Part shown: piece by piece, positions 3,036-62,970 of the stretch | How positions within the stretch are numbered: position 1 is the first letter of the stretch | Layout: each line of letters begins with the position of its first letter | Virus record (IMG/VR): IMGVR_UViG_3300027816_000062 | Direction: 5' to 3' (one strand) | DNA length: 64,000 bases | Source: an uncultured virus (IMG/VR IMGVR_UViG_3300027816_000062) | Lineage: Duplodnaviria > Heunggongvirae > Uroviricota > Caudoviricetes | Notes under the pieces: generated by a model | What the model was told of the DNA's origin: nothing | Database searches by the model: none | The model's input: only the letters and a program-made list of their open reading frames with translations | Made by a program: the position numbers and the translations under genes

Positions 3036-3314
3036 ATGGACAAAGAAGCCATTAAACTAGCCATCTTGCCCCGTGGATCAAAACTAATCGAGGGTGAAGA
3101 AATTAAGTATTATCTTGTTCTCGGGATCGTGGCCACGAACAAGGACATCAACTGGGAAAAAGACTTTGTGACTATGGAAAGCGCAATCGGCTCGCCGATC
3201 ACAGATAAAATTGAGAAAATGACCAAGATGAAACTTGATGAAGATTGCGGAGACGCGAATTCTGTGTTAATGAAACTTCATAACACCAACAGAAACGAAC
3301 TTGAAGAACTCTAA
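3036..3314 (+). CDS. hypothetical protein
   Basis: promoter motif variant upstream. Confidence 0.7.
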   Translation: MDKEAIKLAILPRGSKLIEGEEIKYYLVLGIVATNKDINWEKDFVTMESAIGSPITDKIEKMTKMKLDEDCGDANSVLMKLHNTNRNELEEL

Positions 3315-28070: not shown

Positions 28071-28092
28071 AATTGAAAAATGAGAATCTAAT

Positions 28093-28393
28093 CGGGGCGT
28101 GGCGAAATGGCAGACGCAGGGGACTTATAAAATGAGCACTTGTTTGTGAAAGCTGCAAGTGAATGCAATCAAATTCGGTGAAACCTTAACAGTTAGGCTG
28201 ATGGCAATACCGAGCCAAGCTAACTCAAAACAGAGTTAGAAGGTGTAGAGACTAGATGGTTGCTGCCTAAGTCGAAAGATATGGCAAAGGTATAGTCCAG
28301 ACCACAAAATCCTTTGGGATCGTAGTGAAAGCTATAGTGGTATGAAAATCCCTTAGTAGCAATACTGTGTGGGTTCGAGTCCCACCGCCCCGA
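28093..28393 (+). tRNA. tRNA-Leu(UAA) interrupted by group I intron
   Basis: exons 28093-28126 and 28345-28393 splice to GGGGA-CTTAAAA-TCCCT; CGGGGCG/CGCCCCG acceptor. Confidence 0.9.
28127..28344 (+). mobile_element. group I intron (IC3-like) in tRNA-Leu(UAA) anticodon
   Basis: CTT/GAG P1, AAATTCGGTGAAAC (P), AATACCGAGCC (Q), GTAGAGACTAGATGG (R), AGGTATAGTCC (S), terminal G. Confidence 0.88.
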
Positions 28394-28443
28394 TTAGGTT
28401 ATATATTGATTACTAATGCGCTTTGTGTGCTTTTAGTATAAGA

Positions 28444-28941
28444 ATGTTTGTGTCACGTTTGCAAAAATATACCCTAGAGGAGATAAAAGAAATAATATCT
28501 AAATCAAAATCTTATGCTGAAGTAATTCGATCTATTGGTTTAATTCCTGCTGGTGGAAATTACAAAACATTGCAAAGTTTTGTACATGAATACCGAATTG
28601 ATACTTCGCATTTTCTGGGCTCAGCTTGGGGGCGAGGAAACCAATTGGATTATCTCCACAATAGCAATAGAAAATCATTAGAAGATGTTTTTTCGGGAAA
28701 AGTAGCTTATAAATCAAGCCATAAATTAAGGCTTCGGCTGATTAAAGAAGGATATTTTGAGCATAAATGCTATAAATGTGGACTAAAAGAGTGGCAAGGA
28801 CACGAAATACCCTTGGAATTAGAGCATATAAATGGAGATCATTGTGATAACAGTCTCGAAAACCTCATTATTCTTTGCCCCAACTGTCATGCTCAAACAG
28901 AAACTTATGCTGGTAAAAACAAAAAAAGACGATTAGGTTAA
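28444..28941 (+). CDS. free-standing HNH endonuclease
   Basis: CYKCG..W.G..IPLELEHINGD..DN.LENL..LCPNCH. Confidence 0.9.
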   Translation: MFVSRLQKYTLEEIKEIISKSKSYAEVIRSIGLIPAGGNYKTLQSFVHEYRIDTSHFLGSAWGRGNQLDYLHNSNRKSLEDVFSGKVAYKSSHKLRLRLIKEGYFEHKCYKCGLKEWQGHEIPLELEHINGDHCDNSLENLIILCPNCHAQTETYAGKNKKRRLG

Positions 28942-29386: not shown

Positions 29387-30016
29387 ATGTTTAATATGAA
29401 TGTGATTCTTTTCAAGAACAATTCTATCGAAGAAAATTATCTTTTCTCTGGTGAAAATTCTGAAGATGTTGCGAAAAAGGCAGAAAGCAAAATGATTGAA
29501 ATTCTTCGTTCAGAAATGTCTAACTTTGACGAATACACGTCGGAAGATATTGACAACATTTTGGAAGATGGATATGAATCCTTTGGAAATGGAGCGGTTT
29601 TTATTACGTGGCCTGACATTGTTGATGTTGATAAGGAGATTGATTCGGAAAATAATTTTGTTTTTCGTGGCACTATTGAATACTCCATCCCGCACATTGA
29701 TTCAGAAGTAGTTCGCCTGTGCGCCGCACTAAATGAGCCCATTGAAGTTGGTCTACAGTGGGAATCACATTATCGCAATGGTAATGGCTACGCTGTCCGC
29801 GTTAATGCAGATATCTACTCAGTTGATGAAGAACTTGCTGCCGAGGAATTTAGTGATTATTGGGATTCAGGATGCGATGATGAAATTCGCTATTCTGGGG
29901 ACTACAATTGGTCCCTTTTGGGCAAAGACTATAAAGAGGCCATCAGTATTCTCCAAAAGTATGTTGATGAGCAAAAGCGTCGTTACCCAGGCTACGATAT
30001 TAGAATTAGCAAATAA
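29387..30016 (+). CDS. hypothetical two-domain protein
   Basis: promoter motif; C-terminal half similar to 19177..19599. Confidence 0.75.
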   Translation: MFNMNVILFKNNSIEENYLFSGENSEDVAKKAESKMIEILRSEMSNFDEYTSEDIDNILEDGYESFGNGAVFITWPDIVDVDKEIDSENNFVFRGTIEYSIPHIDSEVVRLCAALNEPIEVGLQWESHYRNGNGYAVRVNADIYSVDEELAAEEFSDYWDSGCDDEIRYSGDYNWSLLGKDYKEAISILQKYVDEQKRRYPGYDIRISK

Positions 30017-30752: not shown

Positions 30753-31073
30753 ATGCGAATTCGACCGCAATCCGACCCGAACAAGGAATATCTCATCGAC
30801 TTTTACTACCCGTATGGGAAGCAAGGACACAAGAAGAAGGGCACCAAGACTGTCTGCACTATCTCTGTCGGCCCTGTGGGTAGTCTCGACAAGGACAAGA
30901 CCGAAGTCTCGACCACTACCGTTCGCCGACATAGTACCGATCAGGACAATCTTGTCGTAGCTCGTAATTATGCACTGGCCAAGGCCCTATCCCCGATTGA
31001 AGCTAGTGTCCGACAAGAGATTTGGGAACAGGCTCCGATTCGACGAGCAGACATTTCCCTGGAACTCGACTAA
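30753..31073 (+). CDS. hypothetical phage protein
   Basis: promoter motif; T.CTI..H..D....AR..AL.KAL. Confidence 0.7.
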   Translation: MRIRPQSDPNKEYLIDFYYPYGKQGHKKKGTKTVCTISVGPVGSLDKDKTEVSTTTVRRHSTDQDNLVVARNYALAKALSPIEASVRQEIWEQAPIRRADISLELD

Positions 31074-31200
31074 ACTCCAAAAACATTCTCATTGAGGGAG
31101 AATTTAATCCCTCAATGAGAAAAAACAAAAAACTGCTAACAAAAAGCAGGTGATCGTCGTATAATAAGAGAAGAAACTGAAAAGCACAAAGAGCTATATT

Positions 31201-31323
31201 ATGAATCATCTCTTATCGACGACAATATGTGGAACAACAGGAACCTCAACAAGAGGAATCCTTTCCCTTGGCGTTATCGGCAAGGATAGTGATTCTGATT
31301 CAGGAGAACCCATCGAATCGTAG
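31201..31323 (+). CDS. putative Gly/Thr/Ser-sensing attenuator leader peptide (40 aa)
   Basis: MNHLLSTTICGTTGTSTRGILSLGVIGKDSDSDSGEPIES; codon run GGA ACA ACA GGA ACC TCA ACA AGA GGA; followed by alternative hairpins and tRNA-Gly(UCC), Ser(UGA), Thr(UGU). Confidence 0.75.
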   Translation: MNHLLSTTICGTTGTSTRGILSLGVIGKDSDSDSGEPIES

Positions 31324-31343
31324 CTTTACTGTGATTACAGAAC

Positions 31344-31384
31344 AAAGAGGCTCGATTCGATAAGATCGAGCCTCTTTTCTTTTT
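31344..31384 (+). terminator. attenuator terminator with overlapping antiterminator
   Basis: AAAGAGGCTCGAT/ATCGAGCCTCTTT plus T-run; 31312-31327 can instead pair with 31347-31361. Confidence 0.85.
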
Positions 31385-31513
31385 AGATATGATGTCTGGG
31401 AAGAGAAAGATCGAATATTGAAAATTTCATACAGGTATAGATATAAAAGTGTTAGGGGGTGTTGGATCGATCTTTGATCGCAGGCCTCACCCCCTTGATC
31501 GAGACACATTTTC

Positions 31514-31587
31514 GCGAGATTGGTATATGGGTTGTGCCCTAGCCTTCCAAGCTAGAGAAAAGGGTTCGAATCCCTTATCTCGCTCCA
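31514..31587 (+). tRNA. tRNA-Gly(UCC)
   Basis: cloverleaf, CTAGC-CTTCCAA-GCTAG, TCCA end. Confidence 0.92.
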
Positions 31588-31638
31588 ATTTAAGACACAT
31601 TTCTTTGTGCTGCCAATGGGCAGCTTTCAAAAGAAAAC

Positions 31639-31725
31639 GGATGGGTGACAGAGCGATCTATTGTAGCGGTCTTGAAAACCGCCGTGCCAAAAGCACCGTG
31701 GGTTTGAATCCCACCCCATCCTCCA
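31639..31725 (+). tRNA. tRNA-Ser(UGA)
   Basis: cloverleaf, GCGGT-CTTGAAA-ACCGC, variable arm, CCA. Confidence 0.9.
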
Positions 31726-31823
31726 TTTTGTAACAAAATCATAAAATTCAAAGCAGGTGTAGCTCAGTGGTAGAGCGCCCGCCGCGAAGGTTGATGGTTG
31801 CAATATCGATAAATAGATTATGT

Positions 31824-32240
31824 ATGGCAATAACAAAATACAAAGGAGCCGTCGGGCTAACTAATGTAATGGCCTGTCTTGTCAATCAAAAAGCAAAAAT
31901 CTTTGTTCCAATAGACGAAGACTGTCAATATGACCTGGTGGTAGATTATCAAAATTATCTTTACAGAGTGCAAGTTAAATATGCTGAGGCAAAAAATGGC
32001 AAGATCGTTGTAAAGACGCGCTCAACGAATAACTATTGTGAAATTCGTTATACTAAAGATCATTTTGACGTGATTGCTGTTTGGGACAATGTTGGCAAAA
32101 AAGCATATTTTATTTCATCGAATTTAATCACAGAAGGAATGACGGAAATGACCTTGAGATTAGATGCACCAAAAAACAATCAAACTAAAAACATAAGATT
32201 GGCTCGTAATTATGAGCAATTTAATGCTGCGGTCGCATAG
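31824..32240 (+). CDS. PD-(D/E)XK homing-type endonuclease (group I intron-associated family)
   Basis: KG..G, P.DE...YDLVVD.....RVQVKY, Y....FD. Confidence 0.85.
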   Translation: MAITKYKGAVGLTNVMACLVNQKAKIFVPIDEDCQYDLVVDYQNYLYRVQVKYAEAKNGKIVVKTRSTNNYCEIRYTKDHFDVIAVWDNVGKKAYFISSNLITEGMTEMTLRLDAPKNNQTKNIRLARNYEQFNAAVA

Positions 32241-32308
32241 TGGTCGATTGCACCTCTCTTGTAAAGAGGAACTCCACACCGTGGGTTCGAATCCCACCCG
32301 TAGCTCCA
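32226..32308 (+). tRNA. tRNA-Thr(UGU)
   Basis: GCTGCGG/CCGTAGC, CCTCT-CTTGTAA-AGAGG, TCCA; 11-nt variable region. Confidence 0.88.
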
Positions 32309-32422
32309 TTTTTCGCACATATGTGTCAGGGGTTCGAATCCCCTCTCCTGCTTTGAGTTGAGTGATGATATCCGATCATAAAAAATCCCCCTTTTTCTCA
32401 ATAGTGATCGGATATATAAAGT

Positions 32423-33022
32423 ATTGCTGTGAGCTAAATCAATTGACACAGCATGATGAAACCAAAATCATCTAAAAACAATAAGGTGCTCCATATACGT
32501 CTGGGAAAGATAAATTAGACGTGGACACACTGTGATGTGGACTAATCACAGCGCACTGGGGCATGTGTGCAAGCCCGAAAAGCCTATCTTTACTGATATA
32601 GTTAAAGAGAAAGAGCAGAGAGTTAAGGCTTAAAATAAACTCCATGCGTTCGTAAGGATGAACTCAAAGACGAGTTCAGTTATGACTAGGATACGAGAGG
32701 AGGGAGGCAATGAGTTTCTCTCCTCTCCCCGACAAAGCGATTTCCGACTGCTCATCGGAGAAGTGATCTAGTAAAACACTCAGAAAAACACTAGCGTAGG
32801 AAATGCGTTAATCCCTGATTTTTTATCGGTTTTTAGAGACAAAAAACTGTTCGTATAGGGCTTGCGGTAAGCCTCTTGTTTTAGCTAGGTGATCCTGTAT
32901 GTAAAAACCAAGCGGATGGAACAAATCAATTTGTTTTCGCGAGCAAATGATCCATTGACTTTGGGGAACAGCGTAAGAACGTTTCGCCATGAGGCTTTGA
33001 GCAAAGTCTCGTTCCCCAAAAA
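32423..33022 (+). ncRNA. large highly structured ncRNA (~600 nt), possibly ROOL/GOLLD-like
   Basis: no credible ORF, begins at promoter motif, more than 10 helices, abuts tRNA-Asp. Confidence 0.7.
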
Positions 33023-33034
33023 TAAAAAGATTCT

Positions 33035-33111
33035 GGGTATGTAGTTCAGTTGGTTAGAGCACCTGCCTGTCACGCAGGAAGTCGCGAGTTCAAGTCTCGT
33101 CATATCCGCCA
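33035..33111 (+). tRNA. tRNA-Asp(GUC)
   Basis: cloverleaf, CCTGC-CTGTCAC-GCAGG, GCCA. Confidence 0.94.
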
Positions 33112-33131
33112 AAATTTCCAAAGGAGACAAA

Positions 33132-33347
33132 ATGAATAGACAAATAGAAAGCCTCGATCATCTGGTGTCTCTTGGGCTACTGACATCATATGAGTTTGTA
33201 AACGTGTCAGCCAATAACATTGAGGGCGAGATTTCAGAACATCATAATTCTGATCGATTGAAACTCATATTCCCGAATGGGTTGGAAGTGAAGATCACTG
33301 CGATCACAACAGGCATGGAAGAAGATGCTCTTTTGAGATTGGAATAA
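33132..33347 (+). CDS. hypothetical protein
   Basis: AAGGAG SD. Confidence 0.7.
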   Translation: MNRQIESLDHLVSLGLLTSYEFVNVSANNIEGEISEHHNSDRLKLIFPNGLEVKITAITTGMEEDALLRLE

Positions 33348-33387
33348 AAATCCCCCATTTTCAGAAGAGTGATCGGATATAAGAAGT

Positions 33388-33645
33388 ATGGAAGCAAAGA
33401 TTTATCGCCAGGCTCATCCCCAGGATGAAAATCGTCTTTCTGTTGCCGCTGATATTTTTGCACGGCGGCACCGCCTTGAGATTTCTCACCACAGCGATTT
33501 GAACTACACTGATCTAACTGGGGCAAACAATTTGGCTTTCCTTTGGGAACGCGCAAAGTGCCGAGCATTACTTATGCCCTTGAAGATCAGTGAAAAGCAT
33601 CAAATTTGGCTTGAGAACGACAAAATTGTTCTGACTCCTTACTGA
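33388..33645 (+). CDS. hypothetical protein
   Basis: promoter motif upstream. Confidence 0.7.
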   Translation: MEAKIYRQAHPQDENRLSVAADIFARRHRLEISHHSDLNYTDLTGANNLAFLWERAKCRALLMPLKISEKHQIWLENDKIVLTPY

Positions 33646-39648: not shown

Positions 39649-39858
39649 ATGAACGATTCAAATCGCTTTGAAGTAATCAGCTCAGGTCCATACAATTTGA
39701 AGATTGTTGCGCAAACTATGACTGAGTGCATGGATATGATTCGACGAAACTCTGACATGGTGGACTTCTGGGCAGTTTTAGACCATTCTACGAAAACCGT
39801 GGTCGCTTTAAGCCAGGACTGGAAAGTCTTGCCAACATTCAAACCCGCAGTAAACTAA
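39649..39858 (+). CDS. hypothetical protein
   Basis: promoter motif; TAATG-coupled to PARP gene. Confidence 0.65.
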   Translation: MNDSNRFEVISSGPYNLKIVAQTMTECMDMIRRNSDMVDFWAVLDHSTKTVVALSQDWKVLPTFKPAVN

Positions 39859-41138
39859 TGAAAGAATCTCGATATATTTTCGCTGACGTGAGCGCGAATA
39901 ATAACAAGTTTTGGAACATCAAAATTGAACCAAACTTCACGGTCGTAACTTCGTGGGGCCGAGTCGGAGATAACGCACAATCAAAGGAATTTCCCCACGG
40001 AAGCCTTGCAGACGCAGAAAAGTTCTTCGATAGGAAATGCCGCGAAAAGGAACGAAAAGGATACGTTAAGCAAAGAGTTCTGATCGGAGAATACACCACG
40101 CAAGATAACACTTCGCTTGCGTCAGTTGCCAAACAACAAATCAACACAAATAGCCCCGAATTAGATGAACTAATTGCCTTCCTGACTAAAGCAAACGTTC
40201 ATAACATTCTAACAGCAACAGCTATGGAATACGACACTTCAAAGGGAGTTTTTACAACGCCCCTCGGAGTTGTCACGAACGATGCCATTCAAGATGCACG
40301 AAGCATCTTGGCATCAATGGGCCTTCTTGTGCATAATCAAGATTGGAACTCCCCCGATTGGAATTCGCTCTTGTCTATGTACCTTACTGCCATCCCTCAA
40401 AAGATTGGACGCAGAAAGCCAGACCCAAGAGAACTCTTCCCGAGCCTTCAAGCTATTCAAAATCAAAGCAAAATTCTTGACGACCTGGAAGCATCATTCC
40501 AATCTGTCGTGAGCGCACCACTGACGCAGAAAGGGGATGACACAAACACGCCACAAGTGTTTGATGTGAAATTGCATCTTGTAGACGATCAAAGCATAAT
40601 TCGACGAATCAAAAACAAATACGACTCCACACGAAAGACCATGCACGCATCATATCATCTGGGGGTGAAACGAGTCTTTTCTGTCGAAATTAACGCGATG
40701 GCAAAGGCATATGGTGATCGGGGAAAGAACGTCGGCAACGTGATGGAACTCTGGCATGGGACACGAGCGGGGAACCTTTTGAGCATCCTTAAAGGCGGAC
40801 TGCAAGTCCCACCCGCATCGAGCCCTCATGTGACGGGGAGAATGTTCGGGGATGGATTGTATTTTTCAGATCAGTCCACGAAAAGCCTCAATTATGCCTA
40901 TGGAGCAGCACCAGGACAAAGAGGAGGAATTGAATCGTCCACGTTCATGTTTCTCGCAGATGTAGCAATGGGACGCCCATTTGTCCCAACGTCCTATACA
41001 CGACCGTCAAAGTACCCCGTGCAAGGACATGATTCAATATTTGCAAAAGCAGGACAATCAGGCGTACACAATAATGAAATGATCGTATACACCACCGATC
41101 AATGCAACCTCACCTACCTGGTTGAATTCGGAAACTAA
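39858..41138 (+). CDS. WGR-domain PARP-like ADP-ribosyltransferase
   Basis: NNKFW..WGRVG..KERKGY (WGR); LWHGT, GRMFGDGLYFSD.STKS.NY, NNEMIVY (H-Y-E triad). Confidence 0.92.
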   Translation: MKESRYIFADVSANNNKFWNIKIEPNFTVVTSWGRVGDNAQSKEFPHGSLADAEKFFDRKCREKERKGYVKQRVLIGEYTTQDNTSLASVAKQQINTNSPELDELIAFLTKANVHNILTATAMEYDTSKGVFTTPLGVVTNDAIQDARSILASMGLLVHNQDWNSPDWNSLLSMYLTAIPQKIGRRKPDPRELFPSLQAIQNQSKILDDLEASFQSVVSAPLTQKGDDTNTPQVFDVKLHLVDDQSIIRRIKNKYDSTRKTMHASYHLGVKRVFSVEINAMAKAYGDRGKNVGNVMELWHGTRAGNLLSILKGGLQVPPASSPHVTGRMFGDGLYFSDQSTKSLNYAYGAAPGQRGGIESSTFMFLADVAMGRPFVPTSYTRPSKYPVQGHDSIFAKAGQSGVHNNEMIVYTTDQCNLTYLVEFGN

Positions 41139-42377: not shown

Positions 42378-42959
42378 GTGATTAATATCAGTAATTTCCG
42401 CGGTCCTATCGTCCAAATCGAACTTCGCCAGGGGAGTCTTTTGGAAGCAAAAGACTTAGACATCATTGTTAATGCTGCGAACTGTAAGATGCGCGGTGGC
42501 GGAGGATTAGACGGCGCGGTTCATGATGCTGCAGGCCCTAACCTTCTTGAAAAGCTGAAAGAACTTGCCCCCTACGGCAGCCCGACTTCCCATCCCGTTG
42601 TTACAGATGGCTTTGAAACTGGATTTAAGAAAATCATTCACACTCCTGGTCCTGTGTGGGCTGATGGTGTTTCAGGCGAGCGCATTGCACTTCGGGCAAC
42701 ATATGATTATGCTCTTGATGCCGCTAATGCGATCTGCAAAAACAAGAATTATAAATCAGTGGGGTTTGGTTCTATTAGCACAGGAATCTTTGGATTTCCT
42801 CTTGACCTTGCAATGCCCATCGCTCTTGGTGCCGTATCTGAATGGGTGCGGGTTGCGCAAAATGTTTATTTCAACAAAATTGTCTTTGTGATGTACGGGG
42901 AAGAAGAATACAACAAGTATAAAACAGCTTTTGACGCTATTAAAGCGTGGAACCCGTAA
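42378..42959 (+). CDS. macrodomain ADP-ribose hydrolase (YmdB/MacroD-like)
   Basis: IVNAAN..M.GGGGLDGAVH.AAG, IIHTPGPVW, ISTGIFGFP. Confidence 0.92.
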   Translation: MINISNFRGPIVQIELRQGSLLEAKDLDIIVNAANCKMRGGGGLDGAVHDAAGPNLLEKLKELAPYGSPTSHPVVTDGFETGFKKIIHTPGPVWADGVSGERIALRATYDYALDAANAICKNKNYKSVGFGSISTGIFGFPLDLAMPIALGAVSEWVRVAQNVYFNKIVFVMYGEEEYNKYKTAFDAIKAWNP

Positions 42960-46715: not shown

Positions 46716-47612
46716 ATGAGTAGAGTAAAGAGAGTTATTGATAATGGTCTGGTATCGAAAAACTCAGTGCCAAAGCACTTCCCCGATTCGATTCAATACG
46801 AGACGATCATGGGAAGTGTGGCCTACGGAGTGTCTTCTGATACGTCGGATATGGATATTTATGGATTTTGTATCCCGCCCAAGCACATTGTCTTTCCTCA
46901 CTTAGCGGGACATATCCCTGGCTTTGGTCAACAGCCTGAGAAATTCGAGCAATGGTCGGTGCATCATATCAAAGATGAAGAAAAAAATACCGAGTACGAT
47001 TTTTGCATTTACAATATCGTCAAGTATTTTAGTTTGGTTATGGAAAACAATCCCAACATGGTGGATTCTCTTTTCACTCCACAAAACGCGATTTTGCACT
47101 GCTCTCCAATCGCTCAAATGGTGCGTGACGAACGTCATATCTTCTTGCATAAGGGAGCGTGGCACAAGTTCAAGGGCTATGCCTACTCGCAGATGCACAA
47201 AATTCGATCAAAGGAGGCTCCGCAAGGCAAGCGAAAAGAGCTGGTGGAACAGTTTGGATTCGACGTGAAGTTTGCTTATCATGTTGTAAGATTGATTGAC
47301 GAAGTTGAGCAAATTCTTGTTGAGGGCACTCTTGATCTTCAAAGAAATCGAGAACAGCTTAAATCTATTCGGAGAGGTGAATGGACTTTAGAGGAAATCG
47401 AGGAATACTTTACTCGTCGAGAAAAAGAACTTGAGCTGGCTTATGCTAACTCAAAGCTGCCTCACACGCCCGATGAAAAGCGAATCCGCCAGCTTTTGAT
47501 GAATTGCCTTGAGCATCATTACGGAAACCTATCAGACGCCGTAGTGGATGTTGACGCGGCCACGAGAACACTTCAGCAAGTTGCGCATCTAATTCGACAA
47601 GGGGGATTCTAA
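46716..47612 (+). CDS. pol-beta superfamily nucleotidyltransferase
   Basis: GSVAYG....SDMDIYG, NNPN, FKGYA, K.AYH..RL, L.SIRRG. Confidence 0.88.
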   Translation: MSRVKRVIDNGLVSKNSVPKHFPDSIQYETIMGSVAYGVSSDTSDMDIYGFCIPPKHIVFPHLAGHIPGFGQQPEKFEQWSVHHIKDEEKNTEYDFCIYNIVKYFSLVMENNPNMVDSLFTPQNAILHCSPIAQMVRDERHIFLHKGAWHKFKGYAYSQMHKIRSKEAPQGKRKELVEQFGFDVKFAYHVVRLIDEVEQILVEGTLDLQRNREQLKSIRRGEWTLEEIEEYFTRREKELELAYANSKLPHTPDEKRIRQLLMNCLEHHYGNLSDAVVDVDAATRTLQQVAHLIRQGGF

Positions 47613-51966: not shown

Positions 51967-52752
51967 GTGATTCAAACTTCCAATAAGAAAACAAGAGTAA
52001 AGCGCAGTCGAATTTGGACGATGCCTAAAGACGAGTTCGCTCAACTAGTGGCCTCAAGTCAAACTTATGTCGAAATTCTCCGAGCCATTAACTACACCAT
52101 ACGAGGAGGAGCTTTTCGAATTTTAAAAGAACGAATTGCGACAGAAATGATCGACGATTCACATATATTAAAGAATGGAAGGCAAACCATTTATGCCCAT
52201 AGATTCAATACTCGGTCAGATGACGATATATTTTGCGAAAATTCTACATACAATAGTGGCCCTGCCCTGAAAAAGAGAATGATTAAGCTAGGCTTACCTG
52301 AAGAATGCACAAAATGTGGGCTTGGTGCAACATGGAATGATGAACCTCTATCTCTGCAAGTAGACCATATCAATGGGGTGCGCAACGATAACAGATTAGA
52401 GAATTTGAGGCTTCTGTGCCCAAATTGTCATTCTCAAACCGAAAATTTTGCTGGCAGAAAGTTGAACGCAAAAAACAAATCATGTCCAGAATGCTGCGCT
52501 AAGATCAGTGGATACCGTAAAGATCAGAGATGCCAATCTTGTGCCAATAAGATCAGGTCTAGAGAAATGCAACTAATATCAAAACCATCAAAAGACGAGC
52601 TTCAAGATATGTTGTGGAAAATGCCCGCGACTAGGATTGCTAAGATATACAATGTGTCCGATAAAACAGTTGGTAATTGGGCTAAATCCTACAAAATTGA
52701 CAAACCGAGCCGTGGACACTGGGTCAAAAAAAATACTCCCCCCCCCTTGTAG
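51967..52752 (+). CDS. HNH endonuclease with C-terminal zinc ribbon and HTH
   Basis: LQVDHING.RNDNRLENLRLLCPNCHSQT; CPEC..CQSC; IAK.Y.VSDKTV..W. Confidence 0.9.
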   Translation: MIQTSNKKTRVKRSRIWTMPKDEFAQLVASSQTYVEILRAINYTIRGGAFRILKERIATEMIDDSHILKNGRQTIYAHRFNTRSDDDIFCENSTYNSGPALKKRMIKLGLPEECTKCGLGATWNDEPLSLQVDHINGVRNDNRLENLRLLCPNCHSQTENFAGRKLNAKNKSCPECCAKISGYRKDQRCQSCANKIRSREMQLISKPSKDELQDMLWKMPATRIAKIYNVSDKTVGNWAKSYKIDKPSRGHWVKKNTPPPL

Positions 52753-52818
52753 CTTAATGGATAGAGCGCAGCACTTCGGATGCTGATGTTATGGGTTCGA
52801 GTCCTATCGAGGGGGCCA
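52743..52818 (+). tRNA. tRNA-Arg(UCG)
   Basis: cloverleaf, CAGCA-CTTCGGA-TGCTG, GCCA. Confidence 0.9.
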
Positions 52819-62565: not shown

Positions 62566-62970
62566 GATTGTTTTCCTCTCCTTATATATCAGATTGGGCT
62601 ACGAAAGAAAGAGGATTTTTTATGACTTTCTGCGATTGTGTGACACAATTCAATGCAAGCCAAATATAAACAAAATCCCTGGCCACGGAGCCTCATGCTC
62701 ATGCGCGACCAGGGTGCCGTCAGTTTTTGGATAATCTCTATACTGTTTGCAACCAATATAGAACCACGTAATCGCGTCCTGAGACTGACCGTTGCATTTT
62801 CACGCTCTGCAACTAGAGGGGAAGCGGATACTCTTTGGTGTGCAGTCCACTTCTCAGCACTAGCGAGGTTGAGGCCTCGTTCTTCTTATATATCCGATTA
62901 GGCCAATGTAAAAAGGGGATTGTTTATAAAAAAACCCCCGCATTTTCAAACACAATCGGATATATAAAAT

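Follow-up and report, generated by a model that had tools for sequence, protein, structure and literature searches.

The subject of this report is a split tRNA gene located at positions 31753-32352 of a 64,000-nucleotide stretch of DNA, referred to throughout as the window, from an uncultured virus of the class Caudoviricetes (IMG/VR record IMGVR_UViG_3300027816_000062). As described below, a cassette composed of an intron-less endonuclease gene of the PF11645 family and a tRNA-Thr(UGU) gene was probably copied into a resident tRNA gene at the anticodon arm, with the destruction of that gene as the result.

In the mechanism envisaged, the free-standing endonuclease gene would travel with the overlapping tRNA-Thr(UGU) gene as one cassette. 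By analogy with its relatives, the target of the enzyme would be an unbroken tRNA gene of a co-infecting phage, cut within or close to the anticodon stem-loop, and repair from the cassette-bearing genome would then copy the cassette into the anticodon arm of that resident gene. The carried tRNA gene would escape cutting by virtue of its different anticodon stem. The acceptor/D-arm and T-arm/acceptor halves of the victim would stay behind as flanking relics that are not rejoined, and the working products of the locus would be the endonuclease and the nested tRNA-Thr.

Architecture of the Locus

The window derives from a giant lake phage (~380 kb). The closest record, designated G001, is 378,848 bp in length and is identical across 31400-32700, and a 2,024-nt stretch around the split-tRNA site is shared without a difference by three more metagenome contigs. 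All parts of the locus lie on the + strand. The 5' half of the outer tRNA gene, GCAGGTG TA GCTC AGTGGTA GAGC G (31753-31777), provides the 5' strand of the acceptor stem, the D arm, and G26. The 3' half, AGGGG TTCGAAT CCCCT CTCCTGC T (32328-32352), provides the T arm, the 3' strand of the acceptor stem, and a discriminator T, and is without CCA. Both halves were read directly from the sequence. Their acceptor strands match at six of seven pairs, with the mismatch being U6:U67.

The insert begins with a 5' junction of 46 nt (31778-31823), which extends from G26 to the start of the open reading frame (ORF) and opens with CCCGC. The ORF (31824-32240) encodes a full-length PD-(D/E)XK homing endonuclease of 138 amino acids. 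It is followed by the complete tRNA-Thr(UGU) gene (32226-32308), which is 83 nt in length with an 11-nt variable region and an encoded CCA. The tRNA overlaps the last five codons of the ORF together with its stop codon, TAG (32238-32240), which falls within the tRNA gene. A 3' junction of 19 nt (32309-32327), containing the palindrome ACATATGTGT at 32317-32326, completes the insert. This leaves no more than 46 nt and 19 nt of the insert unassigned to either the ORF or the tRNA-Thr. An earlier sequence-only reading had described a tRNA gene split by an endonuclease gene and a nested tRNA-Thr; all of the elements that it listed lie at the coordinates it claimed, and its count of six in seven acceptor pairs is correct.

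The Endonuclease and the Nested tRNA-Thr

The ORF matches the PF11645 (PDDEXK_5) profile with an E value of 4.2e-23 and a score of 82.3 bits against a cut-off of 26.1. The alignment places residues 4-131 on positions 3-136 of the 138-position profile and is thus full length, in keeping with the assignment of a PD-(D/E)XK endonuclease from the sequence alone. The protein also matches phrog_5018 (E 1e-13). A profile built from the window enzyme and four homologues (five sequences) finds PDB entry 2ost_A with an E value of 3e-13, and the motifs YDLV and VQVK of the enzyme align with SYDLV and VQVK of that structure. The nuclease motif of the family (D ... Q/E-x-K) is aligned with that of the solved member in this way, and Asp 37 and Gln 50 are invariant across the five homologues. 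Entry 2OST, labeled "Putative endonuclease" in the PDB, is one which we take to be I-Ssp6803I, the enzyme encoded by the group I intron in the tRNA-fMet gene of Synechocystis. As judged by profile similarity, the window enzyme is a member of the I-Ssp6803I family.

The nested tRNA-Thr(UGU) is called by ARAGORN and scores 57.3 bits against the Rfam tRNA model, and hence is intact as had been supposed. It is the same in length and type as the annotated 83-nt tRNA-Thr(UGU) of Rhizobium phage RHph_I1_18. The acceptor strands of the two differ, and pairing is kept in both. With its complete cloverleaf, its model score, its encoded CCA, and a homologue in which the acceptor stem is still paired, the nested gene has the features expected of a functional tRNA.

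Absence of a Ribozyme

A search of 31000-33500 against Rfam, including RF00028, revealed no match at E≤10 to a group I intron or to any other ribozyme family, which bears out the statement in the sequence-only reading that no group I core could be seen. As a positive control, the same group I model does detect an intron elsewhere in the window, at 28116-28319 (58 bits). With its intron option (-i), ARAGORN shows that the host gene is a tRNA-Leu(UAA) at 28092-28394 with a 218-nt intron, 3.5 kb upstream of the locus. Because no group I ribozyme surrounds the endonuclease gene, nothing can splice at the locus. A member of the tRNA splicing endonuclease family that cuts bulge-helix-bulge motifs was likewise absent from a Pfam scan of 45 ORFs in the window; no search for the bulge-helix-bulge motif itself was run.

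Contigs from four metatranscriptome runs were aligned to 31400-32700, and none joins the outer halves, a result that is uninformative for tRNA-sized RNA. Indeed, the contigs are silent on splicing because standard libraries miss RNA of that size and contigs cannot show ends. In one run, contigs of depth 2 cover 32023-32173 and 32193-32343. Apparent joints at 31777/32280 were rejected, as they contain 21 foreign letters and represent tRNAs of other organisms that match the conserved D and T arms.

Related Loci

The arrangement observed in the window recurs in relatives of the enzyme. All four phage isolates examined (Synechococcus phage Sf-FR1, Acinetobacter phage Herod, Pectobacterium phage My1, and Escherichia phage SelmaRatti) carry a homologue within a tRNA cluster. 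The end of the ORF overlaps the next tRNA in Sf-FR1 and My1 and lies 2 nt before it in SelmaRatti; in Herod, the next tRNA is ~135 nt past the ORF. A profile-guided scan of IMG/VR provided 38 loci (numbered with the prefix L), 33 of which contain a near full-length ORF. A tRNA lies within 1.5 kb of the ORF at 30 of these 33, a tRNA ends 56-67 nt upstream of it at 15, and the ORF ends 7 nt or less from the start of a tRNA, or overlaps it, at 11. When the IMG/VR proteins, the window enzyme, and those from Sf-FR1, Herod, and SelmaRatti were grouped at 60% identity, with My1 represented by its IMG/VR copy (L064), 18 lineages resulted. In nine of them the ORF ends within 7 nt of, or overlapping, the 5' end of a tRNA.

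Acceptor-matched halves span the ORF at L046, L049-51, L060, L061, L063, and L067-68, in addition to the window, and at none of the controls. Split tRNAs were also seen by eye at L052 and L057. In total, the endonuclease gene is found inside or next to a split tRNA in 7-8 of the 18 lineages. The order at L063 is as in the window, namely a 5' half, the ORF, a complete tRNA-Asn(GUU), and a 3' half. The halves of L061, L063, L067, L052, and L057 contain complementary anticodon stems, and at these five loci the junction fits a single position, which follows anticodon base 36 and leaves AA at the start of the 3' part. The exon of L060 shows an 8-nt duplication relative to that of L061. The split tRNA of L067 (107-850) has a long variable arm and a 5' loop reading CTTTAAT, which corresponds to a UUA anticodon and is ochre-suppressor-like.

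Several of these loci show further peculiarities. In SelmaRatti (L013, ~1480-1885), the 15-nt 5' end of a tRNA-Ser, GGAAGAATACGTTAA, is directly repeated on both sides of the PD-(D/E)XK ORF, as though the ORF had gone into the 5' end of the tRNA-Ser gene and the gene had been rebuilt downstream. At L057, a match to a hepatitis delta virus-like ribozyme (2240-2307; RF02682, 37 bits, below the gathering score of 44) immediately follows a tRNA. The PD-(D/E)XK ORF of L057/L058 (1495-1926 in L057) has one in-frame stop, at codon 24.

The most informative case is that of the cyanophage loci L049-51, in which the order is 5' half, tRNA-Arg(UCU), a spacer of 67 nt, the ORF, the 3' half overlapped by the end of the ORF, and tRNA-Leu(CAA). 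Annotated tRNA-Arg genes that are intact in cultured Synechococcus phages match the 5' half of L049 at 82-88%. In Synechococcus phage Sf-FS3, an intact tRNA-Arg(UCU) is followed directly by a tRNA-Leu, and this tRNA-Arg aligns to both halves of L049 with the break after the TCT anticodon (position 36). The L049 cassette, consisting of tRNA-Arg(UCU) and the endonuclease gene, is thereby proven to be an insertion into a gene that a sister phage has kept intact at the same place. This cassette, which runs from TTCTTAGAAC through the tRNA-Arg to where the ORF ends, is also present in Sf-FR1 in another context, and hence moves as a unit. The outer and the carried tRNAs of L049 have the same anticodon and different anticodon stems; a carried spare would therefore escape a nuclease that reads the stem-loop. 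Note that the anticodon stem next to the L049 junction is degraded, with three of five pairs remaining. This degradation and the duplication in L060 fit relics that are not under selection.

These loci bear on the possibility that the endonuclease once resided in a self-splicing tRNA intron, as does I-Ssp6803I, and that the ribozyme was subsequently lost and the gene left dead. There is precedent for such an origin in that the founding member of the family is intron-encoded in a tRNA gene (PMC3384342). Group I introns are also close at hand: the phage carries one in its tRNA-Leu(UAA), and another (58 bits) is found at 949-1156 of L067, ~100-150 nt downstream of the split tRNA and outside of the insert. 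Yet none of nine split loci contains a ribozyme remnant inside the insert by Rfam. The inserts are fully explained by the ORF, the tRNA, and short spacers, leaving no room for a ribozyme, and the boundaries of the L049 cassette are sharp with no space for a core. We regard a degenerate intron as very improbable.

State of the Outer tRNA Halves

Two questions arise with respect to the outer halves, namely whether they belong together and whether they could still form a tRNA. In a scan for acceptor-matched 5' and 3' halves 150-1500 nt apart, the pair described here was the sole match on both strands of the 64-kb window, and there were none on both strands of 117 kb of other tRNA-rich phage DNA. 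The 24-nt 5' half is identical in 12 uninterrupted metagenome tRNAs, of which, by eye, eight have the anticodon Gly(GCC), two are other tRNA-Gly species, and two are Thr(UGU). Because five of the 12 carry exactly the 3' acceptor strand of the window, with the U:U mismatch included, the two outer halves make up a natural pair. The 3' half is, by eye, 80-84% like both the Gly and the Thr homologues, and the A49:U65 pair and the TT after the acceptor stem lean slightly toward Thr. No intact tRNA-Gly(GCC) is present in the window or in G001. The outer gene could have been either Thr(UGU) or Gly(GCC).

The outer tRNA is not called by ARAGORN, either by default or with the intron option -i0,700, at stringencies down to 70% (ps70). 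When the halves were joined in silico through a variable loop of 4 or 5 nt, none of 16 junction combinations was called as a tRNA. The same excision gives calls at all eight other split loci; the test is permissive there, because ARAGORN tolerates poor anticodon stems, and it was used solely as a contrast with the window. The CCCGC after G26 might have formed one side of an anticodon stem (the 5' strand), but nothing ahead of the T arm is complementary to it. ARAGORN finds 15 tRNA genes in the window, and a CCA is encoded after every one of these intact tRNAs; the outer 3' half is followed by TTG instead. The outer gene is thus without an anticodon arm and has a 3' end unlike those of the other tRNAs of the genome, and we read it as a dead gene that could not be restored by removal of the insert.

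The 46-nt 5' junction was considered as the decayed 3' part of another tRNA. When it was compared with 236 distinct tRNAs, the similarity was not significant, with 17 of 200 shuffles giving an equal score. No promoter-like site was found on its + strand.

The two halves might alternatively have come from two different tRNA genes that flanked an endonuclease-tRNA unit, each having been cut short through a deletion or through recombination between segments that tRNA genes conserve. The mismatch between the anticodon-stem remnants of the two halves is what would be expected on that basis. Moreover, orphan T-arm/acceptor fragments are ~5 times denser near these endonuclease genes (33 in 81 kb) than in controls (15 in 181 kb), so tRNA debris from recombination does exist. 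The corresponding 5'-half detector is unspecific when used alone (0.31 per kb versus 0.28 per kb in controls), and for this reason only acceptor-matched pairs and T-arm halves were used. Weighing against two separate origins are the recurrence of the acceptor pair, mismatch and all, in the intact tRNAs that share the 5' half, and the lack of any chance acceptor-matched pair in the ~360 kb of strand searched. In addition, L049, in which a single gene was interrupted, also has a degraded junction-proximal stem. A rearrangement of this type appears to us quite unlikely.

Fragments consisting of a T arm plus acceptor strand without a tRNA call were observed at 28369-28392 and 62634-62657 of the window and at 3247, 3421, 6540, and 6600 of L016. 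That at 28369-28392 is simply the 3' exon of the intron-bearing tRNA-Leu; the remainder may be tRNA debris.

Long-Range Helices and RNA Repair Genes

The sequence-only reading had noted that the borders of the insert pair (GCGAAGG at 31784-31790 with TTTTCGC at 32310-32316). These seven contiguous pairs, with G-U allowed, are at the level of chance: 1826 of 5000 shuffles do as well or better, as do 819 of 5000 pairs of genomic windows with the same spacing, and the pairing is missing from the centroid fold. A second helix stands out. A leader (31738-31752), which extends the outer acceptor stem, pairs with 32352-32366 over 13 of 15 positions, eight of them contiguous; the trailer arm proper (32353-32366) was identified as an inverted repeat (I2) and supported by folding and a shuffle test. 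Eight contiguous pairs are reached in 12 of 5000 shuffles, and the 15 intact tRNAs never exceed two. The helix is present in both the minimum free energy and centroid folds, where it closes the whole unit (z -2.7).

The palindrome ACATATGTGT is positioned 8 nt past the nested tRNA, and ACATATGT occurs once in the 64-kb window. In seven loci of the Arg(UCU) lineage, the ACATATGT motif lies 52 nt before the ORF and a few nucleotides past the carried tRNA-Arg, and in L056 it lies 29 nt after the ORF; it occurs twice in 117 kb of controls. The palindrome may be an operator, a processing site, or a relic of the target.

The window also encodes a set of RNA repair proteins: an RNA ligase (PF09414, E 6e-32) at 1-624, a metallophosphoesterase at 2051-2659, a Macro domain protein at 42378-42959, and an RlaP nucleotidyltransferase at 46716-47612. 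The set likely counters host anticodon nucleases.

The sequence-only reading had offered, as one of two possibilities, that the outer halves still fold as a scaffold that is processed, perhaps with the aid of a phage RNA ligase. In its fullest form, the nested tRNA would be released by RNase P and RNase Z, or by another cut, and the halves, held together by a terminal helix of 15-22 bp, would be joined by the phage enzymes into a tRNA or a tRNA-like RNA. The ligase, the phosphoesterase, and the nucleotidyltransferase do exist, and the terminal helix is above chance. For such a product, however, there is no anticodon stem-loop to restore and no encoded CCA, the 417-nt ORF would stay on the 5' half after cutting by RNase P, and no nuclease is known that would cut both junctions. 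We see no way for the ligase, phosphoesterase, and RlaP to take out an insert of 550 nt, and continued use of the halves is hardly credible.

Discussion

The sequence-only reading had offered, as its other possibility, a homing endonuclease that invaded the anticodon arm while carrying a replacement tRNA. Invasion is supported by the family of the enzyme, the lack of a ribozyme, the recurrence of the architecture in distant relatives, and the insertion in L049 relative to its sister phage. The "replacement" part does not follow, given that both Thr(UGU) and Gly(GCC) are candidates for the outer gene. If the victim was a tRNA-Thr(UGU), the nested tRNA-Thr would be a true spare.

An uninterrupted allele was found for the related L049 cassette, in Sf-FS3, and not for the phage under study. 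Among viral contigs, the 24-mer of the 5' half matches one unrelated phage tRNA-Gly only, and that of the 3' half has no match; a 21-mer of the 3' half gave three uninformative matches in genomes. Searches with encoded proteins were no more fruitful: no relatives were found for the product of 29387-30013 or, by exact peptides, for the endonuclease, and the polymerase-like protein encoded at 39858-41135 led to three distant phages without synteny. Exact searches of viral contigs with the 5' halves of L061 and L049 for their unbroken alleles returned interrupted contigs only.

Several observations count against the insertion of a cassette. No unbroken allele was found among the sequences of this phage, the three contigs mentioned above being identical to the window, and 14 DNA runs contain all sampled words of the interrupted form; mobility in this phage is thus inferred rather than seen. 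The junction remnants, CCCGC on the left and CATAT on the right, are not complementary, and therefore a simple clean insertion fails to explain the junctions. Agreement between the outer and nested anticodons is not established here, and at L063 the two appear to be different. In five of the eight other split lineages, the cloverleaf is fully restorable at the common junction 36|37, which is also the expected look of a spliced intron. Finally, the predicted leader-trailer helix hints at a constraint at the RNA level on the supposedly dead halves.

Insertion of a cassette can be compared with systems already described. By its title, the 2001 report of Bonocora and Shub is said to show that I-Ssp6803I targets the anticodon region of a tRNA gene. 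Another account describes a 23-bp pseudo-palindromic target, a tetrameric enzyme, and a family that is mainly cyanobacterial (PMC3384342). The window element is like I-Ssp6803I in its PF11645 protein family and in having a tRNA gene as host. It differs in lacking a group I ribozyme, in being located in a phage genome instead of the chromosome of a cyanobacterium, in carrying a complete tRNA gene, and in that the gene it interrupts is dead.

SegB of phage T4 is a free-standing GIY-YIG homing endonuclease in a tRNA cluster, which spreads together with the neighboring tRNA genes by intronless homing (PMC2330249). Both SegB and the window enzyme are free-standing homing endonucleases in phage tRNA clusters with no enclosing intron or intein. 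SegB belongs to another nuclease family, lies between tRNA genes, and recognizes the conserved T-psi-C region. The window element, in contrast, occupies the anticodon arm of a tRNA gene, with the halves of the victim on both sides. In Aeromonas phage Aeh1, the endonuclease gene mobE reportedly splits nrdA without an intron or intein, and there the protein pieces are said to reassemble such that function is kept; in the window, the RNA gene is lost, and the carried spare could at best make up for it.

A literature search turned up no report of cassettes that lack a ribozyme and place an endonuclease gene plus a tRNA inside a tRNA gene. A 2026 study of gut jumbo phages lists 80 stand-alone PDDEXK_5 genes, and the available text draws no link to tRNA genes (PMC12880540). 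Phage tRNA arrays have recently been linked to escape from bacterial defenses that cut tRNAs (PMC13096335). The cassettes suggest how such arrays come to show rapid turnover, duplication, and debris. They also extend the I-Ssp6803I family, known from a few cyanobacterial tRNA introns, to many phage tRNA clusters. Homing endonucleases are generally considered to survive in important genes only within a self-splicing intron or intein. The cassettes show a third route for RNA genes, which is to break the gene and bring a spare. The enzymes would be natural nucleases with long tRNA-shaped targets. With two Synechococcus phages in culture, Sf-FR1 carrying the cassette and Sf-FS3 the intact target, the idea is open to direct test.

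A more far-reaching proposal, which we consider unlikely in its entirety, is that the phage PF11645 enzymes constitute an undescribed class of ribozyme-free mobile elements specialized on the tRNA position after anticodon base 36, which pay for the damage with a cut-resistant spare tRNA. Here, the relic halves might still be active: together with the leader and trailer they would form a long-range helix of 15-22 bp closing the unit, and tRNA processing would hold down the expression of the nuclease. Because the stop codon lies inside the nested tRNA, a cut by RNase P would leave the endonuclease mRNA without one. It bears on this idea that the closest relative, G001, encodes its own transfer-messenger RNA (tmRNA). 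The tmRNA (tag AENNFAFAA) and two adjacent tRNAs with the anticodon CUA (amber suppressors) lie at 294065-294858 of that record (L015, 4065-4858) and hint at stop-codon recoding or ribosome rescue by the phage.

Neighboring Features

The split-tRNA unit is flanked upstream by a tRNA-Ser(UGA) (31639-31725, called by ARAGORN) and downstream by a phage-wide repeat (32368-32415). The repeat unit, taken as 32368-32424, has an 11-bp perfect inverted repeat, ATATCCGATCA/TGATCGGATAT. It has 14 further copies at E≤0.001 in G001 and is probably a promoter or terminator module. In the ORF-poor stretch that follows (32433-33034), before a tRNA-Asp, the depth of RNA contigs is 34-79 in all four metatranscriptome runs; the contig starts there probably mirror the repeat rather than a start of transcription.

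Two HNH endonuclease genes also accompany tRNA genes in the window. The first is a free-standing ORF (28423-28941; phrog_10822, E 8e-49) directly after the intron-bearing tRNA-Leu(UAA). A group I intron with an adjacent free-standing HNH ORF is the arrangement known from collaborative homing. The second (51967-52752; PF01844/PF13392) lies between tRNA-Gln(UUG) and tRNA-Arg(UCG), and its last 10 nt overlap the start of the tRNA-Arg(UCG) (52743-52818) in a manner similar to that observed for the PD-(D/E)XK gene and its tRNA-Thr.

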